Source: a virus
Lineage: Duplodnaviria; Heunggongvirae; Uroviricota; Caudoviricetes
Direction: 5' to 3' (one strand)
Length of the DNA: 13,226 bases
Virus record (IMG/VR): IMGVR_UViG_2698536480_000007
Part shown: piece after piece, positions 3,633 through 12,642 of the stretch
Position numbering within the stretch: position 1 is the first letter of the stretch
Layout of the letters: every line of letters begins with the position of its first letter
Position numbers and translations under genes: made by a program
The notes under the pieces: generated by a model
Told to the model about the DNA's origin: nothing
What the model saw: the letters and a program-made list of their open reading frames with translations, nothing else
Database searches by the model: none

Positions 3633-4166
3633 ATGAACGCAAAAATCAGATACGGCCTGTCGGCTGCCGTTCTGGCACTGATTGCCGTCGGTGCGCCTGC
3701 GCCTGATATTCTCGACCAGTTTCTGGATGAAAAAGAAGGTAACCACACAACGGCATACCGCGATGGTTCCGGCATCTGGACCATCTGTCGTGGTGCCACA
3801 ATGGTGGATGGTAAGCCCGTCATACCGGGAATGAGGCTGTCGAAGGAAAAATGCGACCAGGTTAACGCTATTGAACGTGATAAGGCGCTGGCATGGGTGG
3901 AGCGCAATATTAAAGTACCACTGACCGAACCACAGAAAGCGGGTATAGCGTCATTTTGTCCCTATAACATTGGCCCCGGTAAGTGTTTCCCGTCGACGTT
4001 TTATAAGCGGCTGAATGCCGGTGATCGTAAAGGTGCATGCGAGGCGATTCGCTGGTGGATAAAAGATGGTGGGCGCGATTGCCGCATACGTTCAAATAAC
4101 TGCTATGGACAGGTTATTCGTCGTGACCAGGAAAGCGCATTAGCCTGTTGGGGGATAGATCAGTGA
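3633..4166 (+). CDS. endolysin, GH24 T4-lysozyme-like with N-terminal SAR / signal-anchor-type segment
   Basis: 177 aa. Weakly hydrophobic Ala/Gly-rich N-terminus ([17 protein letters not shown]), then catalytic E-x8-D-x5-T triad ([16 protein letters not shown]). Partnered with a pinholin as in phage 21. Confidence 0.85.
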
Positions 4167-4627
4167 GCAGAGTCGCCGCGATTATTTATGCTCTGGTTAT
4201 CTGCATCATCGTCTGCCTGTCATGGGCTGTTAATCATTACCGTGATAACGCCACCGCCTACAAAGAGCAGCGCGACAAAAATGCCAGAGAACTGAAGCTG
4301 GCGAACGCGGCAATTACTGACATGCAGATGCGTCAGCGTGATGTTGCTGCGCTCGATGCAAAATACACGAAGGAGTTAGCTGATGCGAAAGCTGAAAATG
4401 ATGCTCTGCGTGATGATGTTGCCGCTGGTCGTCGTCGGTTGCACATCAAAGCAGTCTGTCAGTCAGTGCGTGAAGCCACCACCGCCTCCGGCGTGGATAA
4501 TGCAGCCTCCCCCCGACTGGCAGACACCGCTGAACGGGATTATTTCACCCTCCGGGAACGACTGGTAATGATGCAGGCCCAACTTGAAGGTGCTCAGCAA
4601 TACATAACCGAACAGTGTTTAAAGTAA
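4163..4627 (+). CDS. Rz: i-spanin Rz (lambda-type)
   Basis: [30 protein letters not shown]... matches lambda Rz closely through the central region from memory. GTG 4163 overlaps the endolysin stop TGA 4164-4166; the ORF-track start TTG 4148 is the alternative. N-terminal TM segment followed by a coiled-coil region. Confidence 0.85.
4383..4568 (+). CDS. Rz1: o-spanin Rz1 lipoprotein, embedded in Rz in the +1 frame
   Basis: 61 aa [24 protein letters not shown]...: lipobox LVVVGC, Pro-rich periplasmic part, near-identical to lambda Rz1 from memory. Confidence 0.8.
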
Positions 4628-4764
4628 AATCTTAACTACAATATGATTCATTTTGATGATTGTTTCATAAGGAACAGTGAAGTAAGATCTAAGAGGAGTT
4701 AAATTTTATACAGTATAATCATAATATTGCAGCAAGGTGGTTATAATTGAAAGAATATTTAGAT

Positions 4765-6222
4765 ATGAATACATCTCATGTAAGAGTTGTTACTCATATG
4801 TGTGGGTTCCTGGTTTGGCTCTATAGTCTTTCAATGTTGCCACCAATGGTTGTAGCATTGTTTTATAAAGAAAAAAGCCTGTTCGTTTTCTTTATAACTT
4901 TCGTTATATTTTTTTGTATTGGTGGCGGAGCGTGGTATACAACTAAGAAATCTGGCATTCAATTACGTACCCGTGATGGGTTTATTATAATTGTAATGTT
5001 TTGGATTTTGTTTTCTGTTATTAGTGCATTCCCTTTATGGATTGACTCAGAACTTAATTTAACGTTCATTGATGCTCTGTTTGAAGGGGTTTCTGGAATA
5101 ACAACAACAGGAGCAACTGTAATTGATGATGTTAGTTCATTACCTCGGGCATATTTGTACTATCGGTCACAGTTAAATTTTATAGGTGGTTTAGGAGTTA
5201 TTGTTCTGGCGGTTGCTGTATTGCCATTATTGGGTATTGGTGGTGCAAAGCTTTATCAGTCAGAAATGCCGGGGCCATTTAAGGATGACAAACTCACTCC
5301 CCGCCTGGCCGATACGTCACGGACACTGTGGATAACTTATTCTTTATTAGGTATTGCTTGTATTGTCTGTTATAGACTTGCAGGAATGCCTTTGTTTGAT
5401 GCTATTTGTCACGGGATTTCCACAGTTTCGCTTGGTGGTTTCTCAACTCATAGCGAGAGTATCGGATATTTTAATAACTATTTGGTTGAGCTGGTGGCTG
5501 GTTCTTTTTCCCTGCTATCGGCTTTCAACTTCACTCTTTGGTATATTGTTATTAGCAGGAAAACGATAAAACCTTTAATCAGAGATATTGAACTTCGTTT
5601 CTTTCTGTTAATAGCCTTAGGGGTGATCATTGTTACCTCTTTCCAGGTCTGGCATATAGGTATGTATGACTTGCATGGAAGTTTTATTCATTCGTTTTTT
5701 CTTGCCAGCTCCATGCTCACTGATAATGGTTTAGCTACGCAGGATTATGCAAGCTGGCCCACGCACACGATAGTGTTTTTGCTGTTGTCAAGTTTCTTTG
5801 GGGGATGTATAGGTTCAACTTGTGGTGGAATTAAGTCACTTCGATTTCTTATACTTTTCAAACAAAGCAAACACGAGATAAATCAGCTTTCTCATCCCAG
5901 AGCGTTGTTGAGTGTAAATGTAGGAGGGAAGATAGTTACAGATCGTGTAATGAGGTCTGTATGGAGTTTCTTTTTTCTTTATACTCTCTTCACGGTGTTT
6001 TTTATACTGGTGTTAAATGGTATGGGATATGATTTTCTTACATCATTTGCAACAGTGGCTGCATGTATTAATAATATGGGATTAGGTTTTGGGGCTACTG
6101 CATCGTCATTCGGAGTGCTTAATGACATTGCAAAATATTTAATGTGCATAGCTATGATTCTTGGTCGCCTTGAAATTTATCCTGTTATTATATTGTTTTC
6201 AGGTTTTTTTTGGCGCTCCTAA
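4765..6222 (+). CDS. trkG: TrkG/TrkH-family potassium uptake transporter
   Basis: 485 aa from ATG 4765 (MNTSHVRVVTHMCGF...), multi-pass membrane protein with repeated GxG selectivity-filter-like segments (GISGITTTGAT, GIGGAK, SLGGFST, GLGFGAT). Matches K-12 Rac TrkG as recalled. A TTG at 4747 with better SD spacing is an alternative start. The gene is visibly AT-rich relative to its flanks. Confidence 0.85.
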   Translation: MNTSHVRVVTHMCGFLVWLYSLSMLPPMVVALFYKEKSLFVFFITFVIFFCIGGGAWYTTKKSGIQLRTRDGFIIIVMFWILFSVISAFPLWIDSELNLTFIDALFEGVSGITTTGATVIDDVSSLPRAYLYYRSQLNFIGGLGVIVLAVAVLPLLGIGGAKLYQSEMPGPFKDDKLTPRLADTSRTLWITYSLLGIACIVCYRLAGMPLFDAICHGISTVSLGGFSTHSESIGYFNNYLVELVAGSFSLLSAFNFTLWYIVISRKTIKPLIRDIELRFFLLIALGVIIVTSFQVWHIGMYDLHGSFIHSFFLASSMLTDNGLATQDYASWPTHTIVFLLLSSFFGGCIGSTCGGIKSLRFLILFKQSKHEINQLSHPRALLSVNVGGKIVTDRVMRSVWSFFFLYTLFTVFFILVLNGMGYDFLTSFATVAACINNMGLGFGATASSFGVLNDIAKYLMCIAMILGRLEIYPVIILFSGFFWRS

Positions 6223-6308
6223 TATATGGCTGATTTATAATTGTGAGTTTAATATTATGTTGACTCACTCATTGATCCAATACCTAACTTTACCAGCAAC
6301 ACCTCCGC

Positions 6309-6340
6309 CCCCAGTAGCACTGGCTGCTGGGGTGCGTTTT
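6309..6340 (+). terminator. intrinsic terminator downstream of trkG
   Basis: 10-bp stem CCCCAGTAGC (6309-6318) / GCTGCTGGGG (6323-6332) with one G-U pair, loop ACTG, followed by TGCGTTTTATT. Confidence 0.5.
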
Positions 6341-6359
6341 ATTCATAAAGCAAGGATGT

Positions 6360-7151
6360 ATGAGCGAGAAATTAAAGATAGTCTATCGCCCATTACAAGA
6401 ATTGTCACCGTATGCGCACAACGCCAGGACGCACAGCCCTGAGCAGGTGGCACAACTGGTAGAAAGTATTAAGCAATTCGGCTGGACTAATCCGGTGCTG
6501 ATTGACGAAAAGGGCGAAATTATTGCGGGTCACGGTCGTGTTATGGCGGCTGAAATGCTCAAAATGGATTCTGTTCCGGTCATTGTTCTGTCTGGCCTGA
6601 CGGATGAGCAGAAAAAGGCGTACCGCCTGGCAGATAATCGCCTGCCGATGAATGCTGGCTGGGATGAAGATCTGTTGCGGATGGAGCTGTCGGACCTAAT
6701 CAATGCTGATTTTGATGTCTCCCTGACAGGCTTCATCCCGACAGAAATTGATGAACTGTTGACGGATGTTTTGCCCGGTACAGGAAATGAGGAGGAGCCG
6801 TATACGACGAAAATTGATACGCCTGTTTATGAGCCGTCGGGCGGTAAACCGGATATCAGTGAACTGTACGACGATACGAAAACGCAGGAGCTGATCAGCC
6901 GGATACGTTCGGCTTCCCTTGAGCCTGATATTGAGAAATTCCTCCTGTGTGCGGCAGAACGTCACACGGTGTTTAATTTCAGCAGAATTGCGGACTATTA
7001 CGCTCACGCCCCCGCTGAAATTCAGTGTTTTTTCGAGGAGTCGGCGCTGGTGATCATTGATTATCAGCAGGCTATTGAAAATGGATTTGTCCGGATGACG
7101 CAGCGCATGGTGGAGATCATGCATGGTGGTGAGGAGGAGGAATATGCGTGA
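6360..7151 (+). CDS. ParB-like nuclease-domain protein (ParB/Srx N-terminal-type domain plus unassigned acidic C-terminal region)
   Basis: 263 aa. N-terminal region ...LQELSPYAHNARTHSPEQVAQLVESIKQFGWTNPVLIDEKGEIIAGHGRVMAAE... carries the G-H-G-R type signature of ParB-like domains. K-12 Rac has a short ynaK fragment at this position (from memory). Ends in an EEEE tail whose codons form the SD for the next gene. Confidence 0.6.
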   Translation: MSEKLKIVYRPLQELSPYAHNARTHSPEQVAQLVESIKQFGWTNPVLIDEKGEIIAGHGRVMAAEMLKMDSVPVIVLSGLTDEQKKAYRLADNRLPMNAGWDEDLLRMELSDLINADFDVSLTGFIPTEIDELLTDVLPGTGNEEEPYTTKIDTPVYEPSGGKPDISELYDDTKTQELISRIRSASLEPDIEKFLLCAAERHTVFNFSRIADYYAHAPAEIQCFFEESALVIIDYQQAIENGFVRMTQRMVEIMHGGEEEEYA

Positions 7152-8076
7152 TGATTTTTGCGCCTTTATTCTGACTCACGGGCGACCGGACAAAGTTCTG
7201 ACTTACCGAACGTTGCGTCGTGCTGGCTATACCGGGAAAATTTTTATCGTTGTTGATGATGAAGATAAGACACGGCATCAGTACATGGCTGAATTTGGTG
7301 AACAGGTGCTGGTGTTTTCCAAAACCGATATCGCCAGTCGTTTTGACGAAGCCGATAATTTCTGTGACCGCCGCTCAATTTTTTACGCCCGTAATGCCTG
7401 TTTCGACCTGGCAAAACTGGTCGGGTGTAAATACTTCATTCAGCTCGATGATGATTATCACGAGTTCCAGTTTCGGGTGGATCGCAACTATGACCAGGCC
7501 TATTTTCCGATAAGGAAACTGGATGCGATCCTTTCTGAAATGCTGGCGTACTACGAATCAATACCTGCTCTTTCCATCGCTATGTCGCAGGGCGGGGATT
7601 TTCTTGGTGACAATGGCGGCCATGCTTCGTGGGTGAAACGCAAGGCAATGAACAGCTTTATCTGTTCGGTTGATCGACCGTTCTCATTCATGGGGCGCAT
7701 TAACGAGGATGTGAATACGTACACGAATCTCGGTCGCTGTGGTGAATTGTTTATGACGATCGGTGCTGTCCAGTTAGGGCAGAAACAGACGCAGAAAAAC
7801 AGCGGCGGAATGACCGAGCTGTATCTGGATTCCGGAACCTACGTTAAAAGTTTTTACTCCGTCATGTATGCGCCGTCGTGCGTAAAAATTTCACTGATGG
7901 GTGCCAGCCATAAACGCATTCACCATCAGGTCACCTGGAACAACGCTGCAGTAAAAATCCTTCACGAAAAATACAGGAAGAAGACACCCTGCATATCAAT
8001 GGGGGTGACAAATGATTCCGTATTCGAAAGTCGAGTCTCTGGCAGCGTGCCGGATGACTGCACAACAAATCGCTGA
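7144..8076 (+). CDS. hypothetical protein with GT-A-fold glycosyltransferase-like motif pattern (YdaY-position protein)
   Basis: 310 aa from ATG 7144, preceded by GAGGAGGAGG and overlapping the upstream ORF by 8 nt. Motifs AFILTHGRPD, IFIVVDDED, FIQLDDDY (DxD-like) and GRINEDVN fit the order seen in nucleotide-sugar transferases. No TM segments. Assignment from motif pattern only. The last ~25 aa look non-protein-like. Confidence 0.45.
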   Translation: MRDDFCAFILTHGRPDKVLTYRTLRRAGYTGKIFIVVDDEDKTRHQYMAEFGEQVLVFSKTDIASRFDEADNFCDRRSIFYARNACFDLAKLVGCKYFIQLDDDYHEFQFRVDRNYDQAYFPIRKLDAILSEMLAYYESIPALSIAMSQGGDFLGDNGGHASWVKRKAMNSFICSVDRPFSFMGRINEDVNTYTNLGRCGELFMTIGAVQLGQKQTQKNSGGMTELYLDSGTYVKSFYSVMYAPSCVKISLMGASHKRIHHQVTWNNAAVKILHEKYRKKTPCISMGVTNDSVFESRVSGSVPDDCTTNR

Positions 8077-8263
8077 CGTTCTGGATGTTGATCTGAACCG
8101 ACTGAAAGAAAATCGGGAAGCAATGACAGATTTTTATGCGGCCATCCGTAAGGGCAGAGCGAAAGGTGAAGCCGAGTTACGAGCGGCATTGTTTAAGCTT
8201 GCCAGAAAAGGGGATGCCTTTGCTCTGCGCGAACTACTCAGGGTGGATAAAAATCAGGACTAA
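8012..8263 (+). CDS. small helix-turn-helix-like protein, possibly terminase-small-subunit-related or regulatory
   Basis: 83 aa (69 aa if from ATG 8054): ...MTAQQIADVLDVDLNRLKENREAMTDFYAAIRKGRAKGEAELRAALFKLARKGDAFALRELL. Stop TAA 8261-8263 lies 3 nt before the next ATG. From 8012 it overlaps the upstream ORF by 65 nt, so the true start is uncertain. Confidence 0.35.
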   Translation: MIPYSKVESLAACRMTAQQIADVLDVDLNRLKENREAMTDFYAAIRKGRAKGEAELRAALFKLARKGDAFALRELLRVDKNQD

Positions 8264-8266
8264 CTG

Positions 8267-9031
8267 ATGAGCAGACCGGACTGGGGGGCGTTGCAGCAGG
8301 AGTATATTGCTGAATACACCCGCTCCGGTATATCTCCGGTGGCATGGTGTGAAGCAAGGGGACTGAATTACGCAACAGCCCGTCGTTACATCAAAAAAAC
8401 TCCGAAAAATGCGCAGACAGAAATGCGCAAAACTGCGCAAAAAAGTGCGCAGAAAAAATCTGCGCAGACTGCACAAAAGCGGAACGAAAAATCTCAGGAA
8501 AAAAAGCCAGTATTCGATGCGGGCCTGAATGAGGGCGACGCGGAGGAATTTTCGTTCTGTCCCGATGAATTCGGCATTTCTGACCAGCAGGCTAAGTTTG
8601 CGATGCTTGTTGCTCAGGGTAAAAAGCCGACAGAGGCGTACCGACTAATGGGGCTTCGTGAAGAGATTCAGTCAGAGGTTGCCGCTGCTTTTGATGAGGA
8701 TTTAGCGGACGCCGTGAGTGATTTTTCTGGTTCTTACGTTACGCACCGGCACTGGGATCCTGTGACGGAAACTGGCGGCGAATCCACCGCAATCTATACC
8801 GGGCGAGGCGTGTTGACACGTTATAAGCTGGGCAGAATTGATGGGATTAATATTTTGCATGGTGACCTTAAATTAACCGCTCTGGTATGCGAGGTTACGG
8901 ATAAACCAGCTGTCGACCATATTATTGAGATTTATGATCCTGTATCAAGGCAGTTACAACGATACGAGGTAATTACAGCAAGTGTAGATCCTTCCGCATC
9001 AGTTTACTCTATCCAGTTAAGGAGAGCGTAA
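8267..9031 (+). CDS. chimeric ORF: terminase-small-subunit-like N-terminal region fused to a head-tail joining (adaptor)-like C-terminal region
   Basis: 254 aa. N-terminal HTH-like segments (SGISPVAWCEARGLNYATARRYIKK and ISDQQAKFAMLVAQGKKPTEAYRLMG) separated by a K/Q/A-rich linker. C-terminal ~95 aa (…HIIEIYDPVSRQLQRYEVITASVDPSASVYSIQLRRA) resembles head-tail adaptor proteins by pattern. Followed directly by tail genes with no terminase large subunit, portal or capsid ORFs. Confidence 0.45.
   Translation: MSRPDWGALQQEYIAEYTRSGISPVAWCEARGLNYATARRYIKKTPKNAQTEMRKTAQKSAQKKSAQTAQKRNEKSQEKKPVFDAGLNEGDAEEFSFCPDEFGISDQQAKFAMLVAQGKKPTEAYRLMGLREEIQSEVAAAFDEDLADAVSDFSGSYVTHRHWDPVTETGGESTAIYTGRGVLTRYKLGRIDGINILHGDLKLTALVCEVTDKPAVDHIIEIYDPVSRQLQRYEVITASVDPSASVYSIQLRRA
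8410..8475 (+). repeat. cluster of palindromic TGCGCA hexamers phased with A-tracts
   Basis: TGCGCA at 8410, 8424, 8434, 8446 and 8461 plus variant TGCACA at 8470, each preceded by A-runs. Encodes the linker ...NAQTEMRKTAQKSAQKKSAQTAQK. Confidence 0.6.
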
Positions 9032-9412
9032 ATGGCAAAGGCATGGGATATAGAACCGTCAATATTTGCCGGGATGATTGAGGAAGATGTAGGGCTGAAG
9101 ATTCGCTACATCGCTATGCAGATTCTTACTGCTATTGATATTGCTGCTCCGGTTGATACCGGACGTTTCAGAAATAACAACCTGGTGTCGTTACAGCATC
9201 CCGATTTTGGTATATCTGATAACGTGGATCCGAACGGTACGATTGCTGTTCAGCGTGGGATCGGGGTTATTTCGAAAGCTGCAAATTACGGGGTTATTTA
9301 TATCCAGAATAACCTTCCTTATGCAGAGGCTCTTGAAAACGGTCATTCACAACAAGCGCCAACTGGCGTGTATGCCAACGCTTTTCATGGTGTTTTACAG
9401 GCTTACAAATGA
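9032..9412 (+). CDS. HK97 gp10-like tail-component (head-tail/neck) protein
   Basis: 126 aa with AAPVDTGRFRNN and NNLPYAEALENG motifs typical of the HK97 gp10 family as recalled. SD AAGGAG; ATG immediately follows the upstream stop. Confidence 0.55.
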   Translation: MAKAWDIEPSIFAGMIEEDVGLKIRYIAMQILTAIDIAAPVDTGRFRNNNLVSLQHPDFGISDNVDPNGTIAVQRGIGVISKAANYGVIYIQNNLPYAEALENGHSQQAPTGVYANAFHGVLQAYK

Positions 9413-9801
9413 AGTTTACTGAAATCAGAAATACGGTTATTTCCAGAATGACGGCACAGACGATTATTGATGGAAAAGACGTATTGTATCCGAACGGGCC
9501 AACGTTCGATCCTTCCGGTAAGTTAATCTGGGCGCGGTTAAGTAATATTCCCGGGCAGGCTGGAGTTAATGAAATTGGCGCGGGGCCGGTTGTTTATCGC
9601 ACGGGGATAATCATTATTCAGTTATTTGTCCCCGCAGGTTCTGGTTCAAAACTCATTACTGAGACAGCCGATAAATTGCGGGAACTGTTTGAGTTTCAGG
9701 ATGACGATCGTCTCAGTTACCAGGCTGTTTCCTCAATAGCCGTCGGCGAAAAGAATGGCTGGTTCCAGCTTAATCTTCAAATTCCATATCGCGCGCTCTA
9801 G
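9409..9801 (+). CDS. tail-terminator / tail-completion-like protein (DUF3168-type position)
   Basis: 130 aa. ATGA overlap with the upstream gene. Sits between the gp10-like gene and the major tail gene, the conserved siphovirus order. Assigned mainly by synteny. Confidence 0.45.
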   Translation: MKFTEIRNTVISRMTAQTIIDGKDVLYPNGPTFDPSGKLIWARLSNIPGQAGVNEIGAGPVVYRTGIIIIQLFVPAGSGSKLITETADKLRELFEFQDDDRLSYQAVSSIAVGEKNGWFQLNLQIPYRAL

Positions 9802-9827
9802 CGCAATTAATGACATAGGAGGCTCCT

Positions 9828-10757
9828 GTGAGTTCAGGTGCAAAGGTTATCTCGGCATTTATCCGGGAGACAGTTGCAGGCACTACGCCAGCAAGTGGTG
9901 ACTGGAGTTTATTAAAACGCACAAGCTGGGGAGTAAAACCCACCCAGAATAAAGGCGAAAATAATGAGATTGGTGGCTCCCGGATGGCTCAGGGGGCGAC
10001 GCCTGGCACTGTGGATGTCGGCGGTGATGTTGGTACCAAATTTCGCTGGGGTCAACATGATGATTTTCTTGCATCCTGTTTCGGCGCGGAATGGTCAGGC
10101 GATTCTCTGACAATGGGGAATGAGCGAATAACATTTTCTCTGGCGACCTATGCGTCCGATGTCGGAATTGCCTCTGTCGTCAGAGGAGCGCAGGTTGGCT
10201 CATGGAAAATGCAGATCCCTAACGACGGCGATATTACAGCGACCGTAACCTTTGCCGGGCTGGGCTGGGAATCAAAGGCCGATGATACGAATTTTATCAA
10301 AGGCGAACCTGTGGATAGTGCAGGAAAGTTACGCTATTCGTTTAAGGAGGTTTCAGCAGTAAGCCTGAATGGTGTTGCCGGAGGTAACGGTTTTTGTATC
10401 GACAGTTTTGATATTCAGTTCGATAACAAACTCCAGACACAGCGTTGTATCGGGACTGGCTCGCCTTATGCAGGAGCAAATATTCCGACTACTTTTACAC
10501 CGTCCGGTACGGTGACGCTTTCATGGTCTAAAGCCGCGTGGGAAATCTGGAGTAAAACACTGACTGGAGAAACAGTTCCGTTCAGCTTCACGCTTTCGAA
10601 TGGAGAGGGGGCATACACTTTCAGTTTCCCGAAGGTTCAGGTGTCAGGTGAATGGCCTGATGGGGGTAATAGCGACATTATCCAGGTTCAATTGAGCATT
10701 ACCGCAGCAGATGAAGCACCTACGATAACCAGAAAAAAAATTCCCCGGCTGCCGTGA
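9828..10757 (+). CDS. major tail (tail tube) protein
   Basis: 309 aa, GTG start 5 nt after AGGAGG. Beta-rich Gly/Thr/Ser-rich composition and position immediately upstream of the chaperone G/GT pair. Confidence 0.6.
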   Translation: MSSGAKVISAFIRETVAGTTPASGDWSLLKRTSWGVKPTQNKGENNEIGGSRMAQGATPGTVDVGGDVGTKFRWGQHDDFLASCFGAEWSGDSLTMGNERITFSLATYASDVGIASVVRGAQVGSWKMQIPNDGDITATVTFAGLGWESKADDTNFIKGEPVDSAGKLRYSFKEVSAVSLNGVAGGNGFCIDSFDIQFDNKLQTQRCIGTGSPYAGANIPTTFTPSGTVTLSWSKAAWEIWSKTLTGETVPFSFTLSNGEGAYTFSFPKVQVSGEWPDGGNSDIIQVQLSITAADEAPTITRKKIPRLP

Positions 10758-10837
10758 TCGCAAAAGCCAGTGCTGAGGCGATTAGTTGATTTTCCGTTAT
10801 TCCTCCTGTGGTACTGCCCTACAGGGGGACGCATTGA

Positions 10838-11299
10838 ATGAGGTTATGGATGTTTATTCTTAATCAGAAAATTATCATTGGTGGAGAACGCTGGTTTACG
10901 CCAATGAAGGACTTAAAACCTGTAGACGGGTTAAAACTGTTGGTGGCAAGCAGCGATAACGATCAGTATCGCTCCCGTAATGCATTAATCCGTCGCCACA
11001 TTGAGAAAATGGATGCCAGTTTGCACGTCGGAACGAAGGAGTTTGATATTTCAAAGGTTTCCGAGGTGGATTCTGTTGATGATTTACTCATTGATAATGC
11101 CGCTCGTTATCTGCTGAAAGACTGGAAAGGGGTTGGTGAACTGGTTAATGGTGTTGAGGTTGCACTGGAATATACGGCAGAACGAGGGATCGCGCTGCTT
11201 AAGCAGAATCCAGAGTTGTACTGGCAGATCCTTGCAGAAGCAGCCAGCATCGCCCAGGGTAAAGAGCAGCAGAAGCAGGATACGATAAAAAAGCCATAG
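10838..11299 (+). CDS. tail assembly chaperone (lambda gpG analogue)
   Basis: 153-aa acidic protein ending ...DTIKKP with the slippery heptamer A-AAA-AAG (11287-11293) two codons before its stop. Start could instead be an internal Met. Confidence 0.6.
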   Translation: MRLWMFILNQKIIIGGERWFTPMKDLKPVDGLKLLVASSDNDQYRSRNALIRRHIEKMDASLHVGTKEFDISKVSEVDSVDDLLIDNAARYLLKDWKGVGELVNGVEVALEYTAERGIALLKQNPELYWQILAEAASIAQGKEQQKQDTIKKP

Positions 11300-11607
11300 C
11301 TGCCCAGCGGTGGTTATCGGAGTTCGGGGGAGAAAGGGGGGAAAAGGCAAGATGGAAGCGAGAAAAACTCAGGTTGCCACCGATACCGGAACCAGAAATA
11401 GACCCGGTGCTTAAGGAGTTGTTGTACGCCTATTCGGTAATATCCCGTGCCCGACGTTATGCTGGAATGGCTGGGGTGCCTTTGCCTTTATCTCTGACAG
11501 AGATAAATGAATATTTAGCCACTCATCCGGTATTGATTGAGCGCGATGAATTTGAAGCAGTGATCTTTGCACTGGATGACCAGTATTTTCAGGAGCAGTG
11601 TGTGTAG
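10838..11607 (+). CDS. tail assembly chaperone GT-like fusion made by programmed -1 ribosomal frameshift
   Basis: The -1 frame is open from 11263 to the stop at 11605-11607. Slipping at A-AAA-AAG (11287-11293) continues ...KK-AIAAQRWLSEFGGERGEKARWKREKLRLPPIPEPE... to 11607. The ORF-track ORF 11374-11607 is the tail of this extension. Confidence 0.5.
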
Positions 11608-11727
11608 TTGTTAATTACGTACACTCTGTTACAGAGATGTGATGGTGTCTTTAATTAAATCGATGATGCTCCTGGAGAAAAGCATTGCGTGGCCTCGTAA
11701 TCGCTATATCTACTATTATGTCGCCTG

Positions 11728-11753
11728 AAACCCACTTCGCGGTGGGTTTTTTG
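11728..11753 (+). terminator. intrinsic terminator-like hairpin between chaperone genes and the next ORF
   Basis: Stem AAACCCAC (11728-11735) / GTGGGTTT (11742-11749), loop TTCGCG, then TTTTGTTG. Confidence 0.45.
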
Positions 11754-11772
11754 TTGTCAGGAGTTTTAATAA

Positions 11773-12642
11773 ATGGCAGAGCAAACCTCGCGTCTCGCAA
11801 TAATTATTGATAGCACTGGAGCGAAAAATAATGCTGACAATCTGACCTCCTCATTAGTCAAAATGACGCAGGCTGGGGAAACTGCTGCAAATAGCGCAGG
11901 GAAAGTGACTAAGGCAACAGAAGATGAGAAGAACGCGCTCGCAAAATTAAAAGCAGCTATTGATCCAGTTGGTGCCGCAATTGATACTGTCGGTCGACGC
12001 TATTCTGAATTAAAGAAATTTTTCGATAAAGGGCTTATTGATAAAGAAGAATATGAATTTCTTGTCCGTAAACTTAATGAAACCACAGAGGAATTGAGCG
12101 GGGTTGCGCAAGCGCAGAGAGAAGCCGAGAAGGCCGGAAAACTTGCTGCCGCCCAGCAGGAAGCGCAGGCTCAGGCCTTTCAAAGAATGCTGGACAAGAT
12201 CGACCCTCTGGCTGCGGCGCTAAGAAATCTTGAACAACAGCATGATGAACTTAATGCTGCGTTTGCATCCGGGAAAATAAATGGTTCTCAGTTTGAGAAT
12301 TATAGCCGAAAAATACAGGAAACACGGCGAGAGCTTACCGGAGAGGCTCAGGCAGAGCGAGAAGCAGCAAAAGCGCATGATGAACAGGTTGTTGCTTTGC
12401 AACGTCTGATTGGTCTGGGCATTGGCACGATGGCGAATACGAACTCTGCTGGCGCGCATACCCACTCACTGTCCGGCACTGCTGCAAGCGCAGGTGCACA
12501 CGCACATACTGTCGGTATTGGTGCTCATACGCACTCCGTTGCGATTGGTTCACATGGACACACCATCACCGTTAACGCTGCTGGTAACGCGGAAAACACC
12601 GTCAAAAACATCGCATTTAACTATATTGTGAGGCTTGCATAA
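11773..12642 (+). CDS. chimeric ORF: tape-measure-like N-terminal coiled-coil region fused in frame to the C-terminal receptor-binding tip of a lambda Stf-type side tail fibre
   Basis: 289 aa. N-terminus [20 protein letters not shown]... and helical Q/A/E-rich repeats fit a tape-measure N-terminus and position. The last ~65 aa ([66 protein letters not shown]) match the lambda Stf / T4 gp37-type HxH tip from memory. Stop TAA 12640-12642 overlaps the tfa ATG. Confidence 0.55.

Follow-up and report, generated by a model that had tools for sequence, protein, structure and literature searches.

How did a 254-codon open reading frame (ORF) at positions 8267–9031 come to occupy the place where intact relatives carry their packaging and head genes, and what does it encode? 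We addressed this question in a stretch of phage DNA of 13,226 nt (hereafter, the window), which ORF, Pfam and PHROG assignments identified as the late region of a Rac-type (trkG-carrying) lambdoid E. coli prophage. The 5' part of the window contains, in order, nin-region genes, a Q-like gene, a holin, a DUF1327 gene, a lysozyme, Rz/Rz1 and trkG; Q, the lysis cassette and trkG, which an initial annotation had described as kept, are thus all present. After trkG come a ParB-like gene, a TET-associated-type glycosyltransferase (TAGT) gene, a small conserved ORF and ORF 8267–9031, followed by Neck1, tail terminator and tail tube genes and two tail-chaperone ORFs, and the 3' part of the window ends with a 289-aa tape-measure/tail-fibre chimera and a tail-fibre assembly gene. 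The ORF list confirmed that the only ORFs between the ParB/glycosyltransferase pair and the tail genes are one of 83 aa and the one of 254 aa. Neither the ORF list nor profile searches revealed a terL, portal, scaffold or capsid gene in the window, in agreement with the initial annotation, which had noted their absence before the gene at 9032. The features of this central part are:

6360–7151: ParB-like gene
7123/7144–8076: TAGT glycosyltransferase gene
8054–8263, plus strand: conserved 69-aa ORF 5' of terS (83 aa with a start at 8012), with a weak TerS-like match to PHROG 309
8267–9031, plus strand: chimeric ORF of 254 codons, consisting of terS codons 1–127 and then Hc1 codons 1–127, as defined by the profile split and by identity to the parents
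8267–8647, plus strand: terS 5' remnant, encoding an N-terminal extension (HTH and K/A/Q-rich repeat) and six residues of the PF03592 core
8648–9031, plus strand: complete Hc1 head-closure gene (PHROG 161), with its own ATG kept
9032–9412, plus strand: Neck1/tail completion gene (gp10-like), retained (Pfam/PHROG)
9409–9801, plus strand: tail terminator gene, retained (Pfam/PHROG)
9828–10757, plus strand: tail tube gene, retained (Pfam/PHROG)

The 69-aa ORF is found in intact relatives too, and is fused to TerS in P0048 and P0049.

The two halves of the 254-aa protein, analyzed separately by PHROG profiles and by identity to parental proteins, proved to be TerS and Hc1. Residues 1–131 match PHROG 51 (terminase small subunit) over profile positions 1–116 of 261 (E = 1.9e-39), whereas intact TerS covers positions 1–261, and the N-terminal part agrees with the TerS protein of E. 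coli strain 190 at 125 of 127 residues. Residues 128–254 match PHROG 161 (head closure Hc1) over its full length (positions 1–120 of 120, E = 6.5e-28) and are identical, at 127/127 residues, to the separate 127-aa Hc1 of the same strain. The suggestion of a TerS-like N-terminus was therefore correct. The C-terminal half, described initially as resembling a head-tail adaptor, is the whole of Hc1 (head closure/stopper) and not Ad1 (PHROG 493), which in intact relatives is a 131-aa gene upstream of Hc1 and has been deleted here. Relatives of Hc1 are often mislabelled 'glutamate 5-kinase' in public records.

TerS codon 127 (CTA) directly abuts the Hc1 ATG, so that 127 + 127 codons account for all 254. 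The chimera has no Pfam match at E<=0.1. In the full-length 364-aa TerS, Pfam PF03592 (Terminase_2), a core that comprises an HTH DNA-binding domain and an oligomerisation domain, spans residues 122–321; since this core starts at residue 122 and the TerS part of the chimera stops at residue 127, the chimera retains just the TerS N-terminal extension. It is thus a TerS N-terminal extension without its Terminase_2 core, joined to a head-closure protein without a head. The frame itself is a truncated terS that reads through into the intact Hc1 gene downstream, and because the terS frame enters the Hc1 frame by chance, gene callers report one 254-aa protein. The native Hc1 Shine-Dalgarno sequence (GAGGGGGGG) was removed by the deletion, which brought an AGAGG to a position 10 nt before the ATG; from these motifs it is conceivable that Hc1 is translated independently from AGAGG and its own ATG. 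We suggest that the ORF be annotated as a chimeric pseudogene (terS'::Hc1) and not as a protein of unknown function.

We mapped the deletion by comparison with two intact references, E. coli strain 190 (NZ_CP020520.1, hereafter L001) and vB_EcoS-666R9 (L002); the vB_EcoS 'phages' are prophages predicted in genomes (bioRxiv 10.1101/2022.06.29.498070). Window positions 4161–8647 correspond to L001 2291–6777 (99.4% identity) and positions 8646–12412 to L001 14001–17766 (99.0%), and the 7,225 bp between these two colinear blocks are missing from the window. In both references the glycosyltransferase gene is followed by the 69-aa ORF, terS (364 aa), terL (Terminase_6), portal (DUF4055), a Mu-F-like head morphogenesis protein, scaffold (DUF6651), a P22-type major capsid gene, a 58-aa ORF, Ad1 (131 aa), Hc1 (127 aa), Neck1 and the tail terminator. 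The window has therefore lost terS codons 128–364, terL, portal, the Mu-F-like head protein, scaffold, the P22-type major capsid gene, the 58-aa gene and Ad1. The junction is this feature:

8646–8647: deletion junction, the dinucleotide TA common to both parents, and the recurrent left breakpoint described below

At the junction the parental sequences are GCGTACCGAC-TA|GCCGGTTATG on the left and GAGGGGGGGA-TA|ATGGGGCTT on the right (in close-up, CGAC-TA|GCCGG and GGGA-TA|ATGGGG), with TA as their sole overlap. Colinearity with intact relatives thus bears out the idea that a deletion had removed the head module, while placing its junction at 8646–8648, about 50–110 nt to the left of the predicted interval (nt 8700–8760). 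The head module is gone and the chimera is open, as that idea held, but the deletion is not in frame in the strict sense, since 7,225 bp is not a multiple of three; the chimera stays open because terS and Hc1 lie in different frames that coincide across the deletion.

The tail module was broken as well, by a second deletion:

11773–12642, plus strand: second chimeric ORF, in which about 213 codons of the tape-measure N-terminus continue in frame into a tail-fibre C-terminus (TMP::Stf)

With this deletion, whose junction at 12410–12412 has the microhomology TTG, the tail-tip genes, lom, most of stf and the remainder of the tape measure were lost. The element thus lacks terL, portal, scaffold, major capsid, a full tape measure and tail-tip genes, all of which are present in L001 and L002. 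With head genes and tail tip lost, it is unable to assemble heads or tails or to package DNA; the last had been claimed from the start and follows from the absence of terL, portal, scaffold, capsid and the TerS core. It is a cryptic remnant, an ordinary decaying prophage in which Q, lysis genes and trkG are still present.

The K-12 Rac prophage (trkG-ynaK-ydaY-ynaA(tmp)-lomR-stfR-tfaR-pinR) belongs to the same prophage family and has the same gene order, and like the window it has lost head and packaging genes by internal deletion while keeping trkG and tail-fibre genes. It differs in having lost a larger block, with an ynaK-to-ydaY junction at AA and a tape-measure junction to lomR at CA. Unlike K-12 Rac, the window has intact ParB-like, glycosyltransferase, Hc1, Neck1, terminator and tube genes, as well as the terS 5' end and the full lysis cassette. 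A chimeric terS also occurs in Rac-SA53 (KU052037.1), where the depositor annotated 'gpOterS; fusion of two genes by deletion'. There, the sequence between the terS repeat region and a point to its left in replication gene O is missing, and the terS 3' part and terL are still in place, whereas the deletion in the window runs rightward from codon 127 and removes both.

We searched for the scar with a 1.6-kb query spanning the ORF in 5,426 complete E. coli genomes. Although 930 genomes matched, none of the 5,426 contained a junction-spanning locus: no single place covered 80% of the query, all matches stopped at query position 747–749, and in most genomes both halves were found at separate places. 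The 12 phage records that matched showed the same break, and none of them spanned the junction. Among 5.8 billion protein clusters, no homologue covered more than 62% of the 254-aa protein. The alternative that the initial annotation had named, a single gene present at full length in intact phages, thus found no counterpart among these proteins, genomes and phages. A database entry, CDP75867.1 (E. coli D6-117.29), has exactly the 254-aa sequence, and in NCBI drafts and SRA-derived assemblies the identical scar was found on a total of about 24 contigs, one carrier being GCA_045754835.1. The exact junction was absent from one-genome-per-species contigs and from viral contigs; three exact-junction matches in JGI metagenomes were rejected as chance matches within unrelated sequence. 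The scar loci match the window at 99.96–100%, except for one at 99.76% (L003), which differs from the window by 4 SNPs in 12.7 kb and by a recombined or divergent tail-fibre-assembly (tfa) allele, and has a different right flank. Another (L004) additionally lacks the nin region, Q, holin and lysozyme. The near-identity of the carriers points to a single deletion event that was inherited clonally; the scar-bearing element is one clonal lineage in which decay is ongoing.

This distribution bears on two explanations that would make the ORF something other than a scar. An assembly artefact or a laboratory-engineered deletion might be suspected from a right end that falls exactly at a start codon and from a junction that occurs in no complete genome. 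We give this almost no credence: the same junction is found in independent NCBI assemblies and in SRA-derived contigs of up to 118 kb from different projects, the 2-bp overlap is too short for assemblers to join, and sister events (see below) lie on contigs of 0.67 Mb and 4.56 Mb. It is also highly improbable that selection maintains the 254-aa ORF as a real fusion gene, for example in a satellite-like element with a DNA-binding domain derived from TerS. In favour of this reading are the open frame, the persistence of the scar in about 24 contigs, one of which has decayed further, and a junction that recreates a site (CGAC-TA-ATGG) fitting the flank preference described below. Persistence among near-identical carriers, however, is clonal descent, most sister deletions that begin at this TA are out of frame, no diverged full-length homologue was found, and the TerS core and all partner proteins are absent.

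The left end of the deletion is shared with many other elements. Many matches to the N-terminal half were truncated or fused TerS proteins that diverge after ...KPTEAYRL| and continue with differing tails. Mapping these tails, including those of protein-cluster members, onto the intact references yielded at least 18 independent events with distinct right ends. One right end lies 556 bp away in the 3' end of terS, and others are in terL, the Mu-F-like gene (two events), the scaffold region and the capsid gene, with the remainder at the Hc1 start (the window) and in ydaY, J (two), lom, stf (four), sitB (two) and sitA. DNA junctions were read directly at eight loci, and all carry GGCGTACCGACTA up to the breakpoint. 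In the intact right partner, TA precedes the retained sequence in all 18 events; TA occurs at 4.8% of positions, so the chance of finding it at every right partner is ~0.048^18. Microhomology longer than TA, as read from the listed junctions, was no commoner than chance, which favours an obligatory 2-nt overlap over joining driven by annealing. Taking these observations together with the parental comparison, we put at roughly 0.9 the probability that ORF 8267–9031 is the scar of a 7,225-bp deletion that joined terS codon 127 to the Hc1 start across TA, at a left breakpoint that is recurrent and not random. No breakpoint hotspot of this kind was found described in the literature that could be searched.

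The events also have a direction and a boundary. All 18 are deletions between sites in the same orientation, with no inversions although TA is palindromic, and no leftward deletion anchored at codon 128 occurred among the best 120 matches to TerS residues 128–364. Every right end lies inside the prophage (18/18); the farthest is at 27,091 bp, 323 bp before the start, at 27,414 bp, of the host flank that different prophage versions have in common, and the host genes beyond it (uspF, ompN and pfo) are dispensable. Right sites have flank preferences as well: relative to 982 background TA sites, position -3 is G or C in 17 of 18 (p = 2.5e-4) and position +4 is a purine in 18 of 18 (p = 8e-6), both values being uncorrected for about 150 implicit tests. 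The preference is weak and roughly dyad-symmetric, and the left site, CGAC-TA-GCCG, conforms to it.

These patterns make it quite unlikely that the window records a one-off illegitimate recombination, in which short microhomologies were joined in the lysogen chromosome at a site that is not special. In favour of such joining, other deletions in the family have arbitrary microhomologies of 2–3 nt (AA in ynaK::ydaY, CA in tmp::lomR and TTG in TMP::Stf) and other terS fusions have 0–9 nt of arbitrary sequence; neither the TMP::Stf junction of the window nor those of K-12 Rac follow the TA rule. Against it stand the 18 independent events at one left nucleotide among about 1,095 terS positions, the restriction of microhomology to TA without more long matches than chance gives, the flank preference at the right site, and the lack of inversions, of leftward events and of any deletion crossing into non-essential host genes.

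The left site, CTAG, brings to mind a TA-specific transposase of the IS630/Tc1-mariner type, or another IS, that makes adjacent deletions from an element or a cryptic end in terS. Members of this family insert almost exclusively at TA (PMC2170065), and the titles of two reports (Tenzen et al. 1990, 1991, cited in PMC2170065) state that IS630 prefers TA in CTAG; the main hotspot resembles these systems in that TA is obligatory at both partners and the left site is CTAG. The resemblance ends there, as no element is present, the flanks are G+C-rich, the other CTAG is cold, only deletions occur and an AA region lies nearby. No IS was left at any of the eight junctions read, and the terminal inverted repeats flanked by TA that mark rearrangements by this family were not found; the idea of a transposon end concealed at the junction was given up, as no inverted-repeat partner for the left flank was detected within 9.1 kb. 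The second CTAG in terS (L001 6910) is the cold one, and CTAG occurs at none of the 18 right partners. The flanks of Tc1-type targets are A+T-rich, in contrast to the right sites here. Intramolecular transposition should also yield inversions as often as deletions, and the upstream region described below uses AA. A transposase is accordingly a very unlikely source of these deletions.

A 2-bp crossover with obligatory central identity, weakly dyad flanks (Y-S-G-N-NN-N-C-S-R) and reuse of right sites is what would be expected of a small serine recombinase, either a Pin-type invertase or a resolvase, acting on pseudo-sites with a common central dinucleotide. Serine recombinases do act in this way at quasi-sites, as Cin and Gin do, and some versions of Rac carry pinR. 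Sites of the Din family have the core AAACC-NN-GGTTT, with two 12-bp half-sites around a 2-bp crossover. The sites here are unlike this core: the sequence on the left is GTACCGAC-TA-GCCGGTTA, and all that the right sites share is S at -3 and R at +4. Furthermore, invertases favour inversion, yet none of the 18 TA events is inverted, and the region read of the sit-carrying version, in which several of the events took place, contains no pin gene. We therefore regard a serine recombinase as unlikely.

Examination of other left ends, sampled in two genes close to the presumed pac, terS and the glycosyltransferase gene, limits how narrowly the hotspot can be defined. Further TA-to-TA crossovers in terS were found at codon 205 (three events), codon 240 (one) and codon 130 (three), and the remaining terS fusions are those with arbitrary microhomology. 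A second hot region lies 0.8 kb upstream at glycosyltransferase residues 230–235 (GATTCCGGAACCTACGTTAAAAG, window about 7831–7853) and accounts for 15 of 23 fusion events there; its crossovers are mostly at AA, with others at AACC, at a single base and, in three or four cases, at the TA of GT-TA-AA. Left ends thus cluster at two spots within about 1.2 kb around the terS 5' end. Right sites are reused by different left sites, at L001 10381–82, at GTCGG-TA-TTGG in stf and at a K-12 stfR site. The CTA at codon 127 is limited to the commonest terS allele, other alleles having CTG or GAC; conservation of CTAG across alleles was accordingly rejected, as it is allele-specific and falls where the gene varies most. 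Our first model, a single precise pac nucleotide cut by a TA-specific enzyme, was weakened by the AA region in the glycosyltransferase gene and by the TA crossovers at codons 130, 205 and 240. Taken together, the data describe joining between preferred sites that must share a central dinucleotide, rather than the action of a TA-specific enzyme on one nucleotide.

A dinucleotide that depends on the site (TA or AA) is also predicted by replication template switching, in which synthesis halts at a short palindrome and the nascent 3' end then primes again farther downstream, where 2 nt match. This explanation likewise predicts a fixed left end, variable right ends, a single direction and deletions only, and both hot regions contain palindromes centred on CCGG (ACCGAC-TA-GCCGGT in terS and TTCCGGAA in the glycosyltransferase gene). 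The palindromes are just 8–14 bp long, however, and deletions of up to 27 kb far exceed the single-stranded template available at a fork; the flank preferences of the right sites have no relation to a primer terminus, and the confinement to the prophage is left unexplained. We consider template switching rather unlikely.

Fixed left ends, an identical 2-nt core, a flank preference, rightward-only deletions and confinement to the prophage all suggest a site-preferring enzyme that makes a 2-nt stagger, acting on the extrachromosomal phage genome. Such an enzyme, rather than generic microhomology joining, is probably responsible for the deletions. Its identity is a more tentative matter, and we weakly favour the phage's own terminase, TerL positioned by TerS, without considering this the likelier outcome. 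The reasons are that the hot spots lie where headful phages initiate packaging, that TerS is of the SPP1 type, and that packaging as a rule runs from terS towards terL. In this proposal, two-nucleotide staggered cuts would be rejoined between preferred sites on extrachromosomal phage DNA. One cut would be made by TerL, positioned by TerS, in a packaging-initiation zone around the terS 5' end, and a second, downstream cut would also be made by TerL, so that rejoining deletes the head and packaging genes. Products without attP and int would be lost, which would leave only deletions confined to the phage genome.

A candidate recognition element for TerS lies in the retained part of the gene:

8410–8466, plus strand: candidate array of five TGCGCA motifs, 10–15 nt apart and interleaved with A-runs, in the terS remnant

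Five of the eight TGCGCA copies in the window fall within these 57 bp. The phased array is situated 180–240 bp upstream of the hotspot and is kept in all aligned terS alleles, including that of Rac-SA53. Judging by its sequence and position, it may be a TerS-binding (pac recognition) array. In headful packaging of the SPP1 type (pacL-pacC-pacR), the large terminase makes its first cut at a specific site adjoining repeat boxes (PMC4737164), and the Rac-type phages resemble SPP1 in that intact TerS has PF03592 and that terS contains or adjoins both a repeat array and a preferred break site. They differ in that the break sites here are read from deletion scars and extend over about 1.2 kb, and in that the 2-nt cohesive cut is a proposed one. 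In the E. coli LF82 prophage Gally, the pac site was mapped in terS with rightward packaging (PMC9928086); Gally was set aside as a direct model, being a P22-like podovirus with an unrelated TerS, and serves as an analogy only. No phage record starts or ends at the hotspot, which would have been a proxy for a pac terminus, and the closest 'phages' are predicted prophages.

Three observations count against the terminase. Given the AA region and the TA crossovers at codons 130, 205 and 240, initiation would have to be spread over a zone of about 1.2 kb. The CTA codon is found in a single terS allele. When a deletion begins in the glycosyltransferase gene, the whole terS 5' region is lost along with the candidate array, so such events cannot have relied on later packaging from the array.

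Taken alone, the scar is ordinary: it is a chimeric pseudogene left by a deletion that grounded a Rac-type prophage. A one-directional breakpoint that is precise to the nucleotide, has a 2-nt overlap and has been reused at least 18 times is contrary to what random decay would lead one to expect, and implies that a specific enzymatic step lies behind head-gene loss in Rac-type prophages. Phages of this type occur in about 16% of complete E. coli genomes, roughly one in six. Headful nucleases are generally regarded as sequence-independent. We offer, as a possibility about which we remain doubtful, that prophage decay is self-inflicted: the Rac-type terminase would cut with a 2-nt stagger at sites approximating Y-S-G-N-NN-N-C-S-R, dominantly at terS codon 127, and leave 'grounded' prophages behind. 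If so, these prophages would lose their head and packaging genes in one step while keeping cargo such as trkG and sit, and their natural scars would show, to the nucleotide, where packaging is initiated and which sequences a headful nuclease prefers.

A second deletion hot region lies in the glycosyltransferase gene, in addition to the main hotspot at the TA of terS codon 127 (window 8646–8647), and further breakpoints fall within terS itself.

Features of the terS region and its upstream genes
Window 6360–8076: ParB-like gene and TET-associated-type glycosyltransferase gene (glycosyltransferase matching PF20691, E 3e-35)
Window ~7831–7853 (~5961–5983 in L001, the intact relative from E. coli strain 190): second deletion hot region, GATTCCGGAACCTACGTTAAAAG, encoding glycosyltransferase residues 230–235
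Window 8054–8263: conserved 69-aa ORF upstream of terS, weakly matching PHROG 309 (small terminase)
Window 8410–8466: five TGCGCA motifs spaced 10–15 nt apart, alternating with A-runs
L028 (Escherichia phage Rac-SA53) 512–1540: annotated by the depositor as 'gpOterS; fusion of two genes by deletion'

The glycosyltransferase hot region contains the break in 15 of 23 glycosyltransferase fusion proteins, whose right partners are many and different. Crossovers there occurred at AA, at AACC, at the TA of GT-TA-AA or at a single base, and the region and the terS hotspot have right-hand sites in common. The ParB-like and glycosyltransferase genes, which immediately precede terS in every relative, possibly form a DNA-modification module; the window shows no TET/JBP dioxygenase or methyltransferase.

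Two different fusions, P0058 (to terL) and P0226 (whose partner is unmapped), have their break after residue 122 of TerS (L001 ~6762). A direct repeat, CCGAC, has its first copy at this point, 13 nt ahead of the main hotspot, and the P0058 junction has a single nucleotide in common between its parents. The chimeric terS of Rac-SA53 is an independent event, a leftward deletion with its end in the TGCGCA repeat region. In some genomes the 69-aa ORF is joined in frame to TerS, giving 435-aa proteins (P0048 and P0049). Homologues of the partner gene in the terS'::Hc1 scar, the 127-aa head closure proteins of the query protein's cluster (P0003–P0015), are widely recorded in NCBI and UniRef as 'glutamate 5-kinase', almost certainly a propagated misannotation.

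The window holds a second in-frame chimera (11773–12642), in which ~213 N-terminal codons of the tape-measure gene are joined to a tail-fibre C-terminus by a deletion that took out what remained of the tape measure together with the tail-tip genes, lom and most of stf. Because the microhomology at its junction (12410–12412) is TTG, this event falls outside the TA pattern. Decay also continued after the head deletion, since a contig carrying the terS'::Hc1 scar (L004) has an extra deletion (4714–5998) that links Rz to the region of the DUF1376 replication gene and leaves the contig without the nin region, Q, holin and lysozyme.

In another version of the prophage, the position of pinR-ynaE in K-12 Rac is instead taken by the iron/manganese transporter operon sitABCD (L013 12652–16101; L005 5585–9034), which lies left of the conserved host flank and is apparently carried as prophage cargo. 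Just 3' of trkG (window 6309–6332) there is a terminator-like hairpin with a T-run after it, which fits the view of trkG as a moron that is expressed autonomously.

The TGCGCA array, which encodes the K-x-A-Q peptide repeats of TerS, is kept across terS alleles, with small indels and frameshifts varying it in database proteins, and is a candidate terminase recognition array. In an alignment of terS alleles, by far the most divergent part surrounds the hotspot (L001 6750–6850, codons ~120–150), where the Terminase_2 HTH begins, and the alleles are nearly identical on both flanks. This pattern of sequence divergence suggests that packaging specificity is diversifying.
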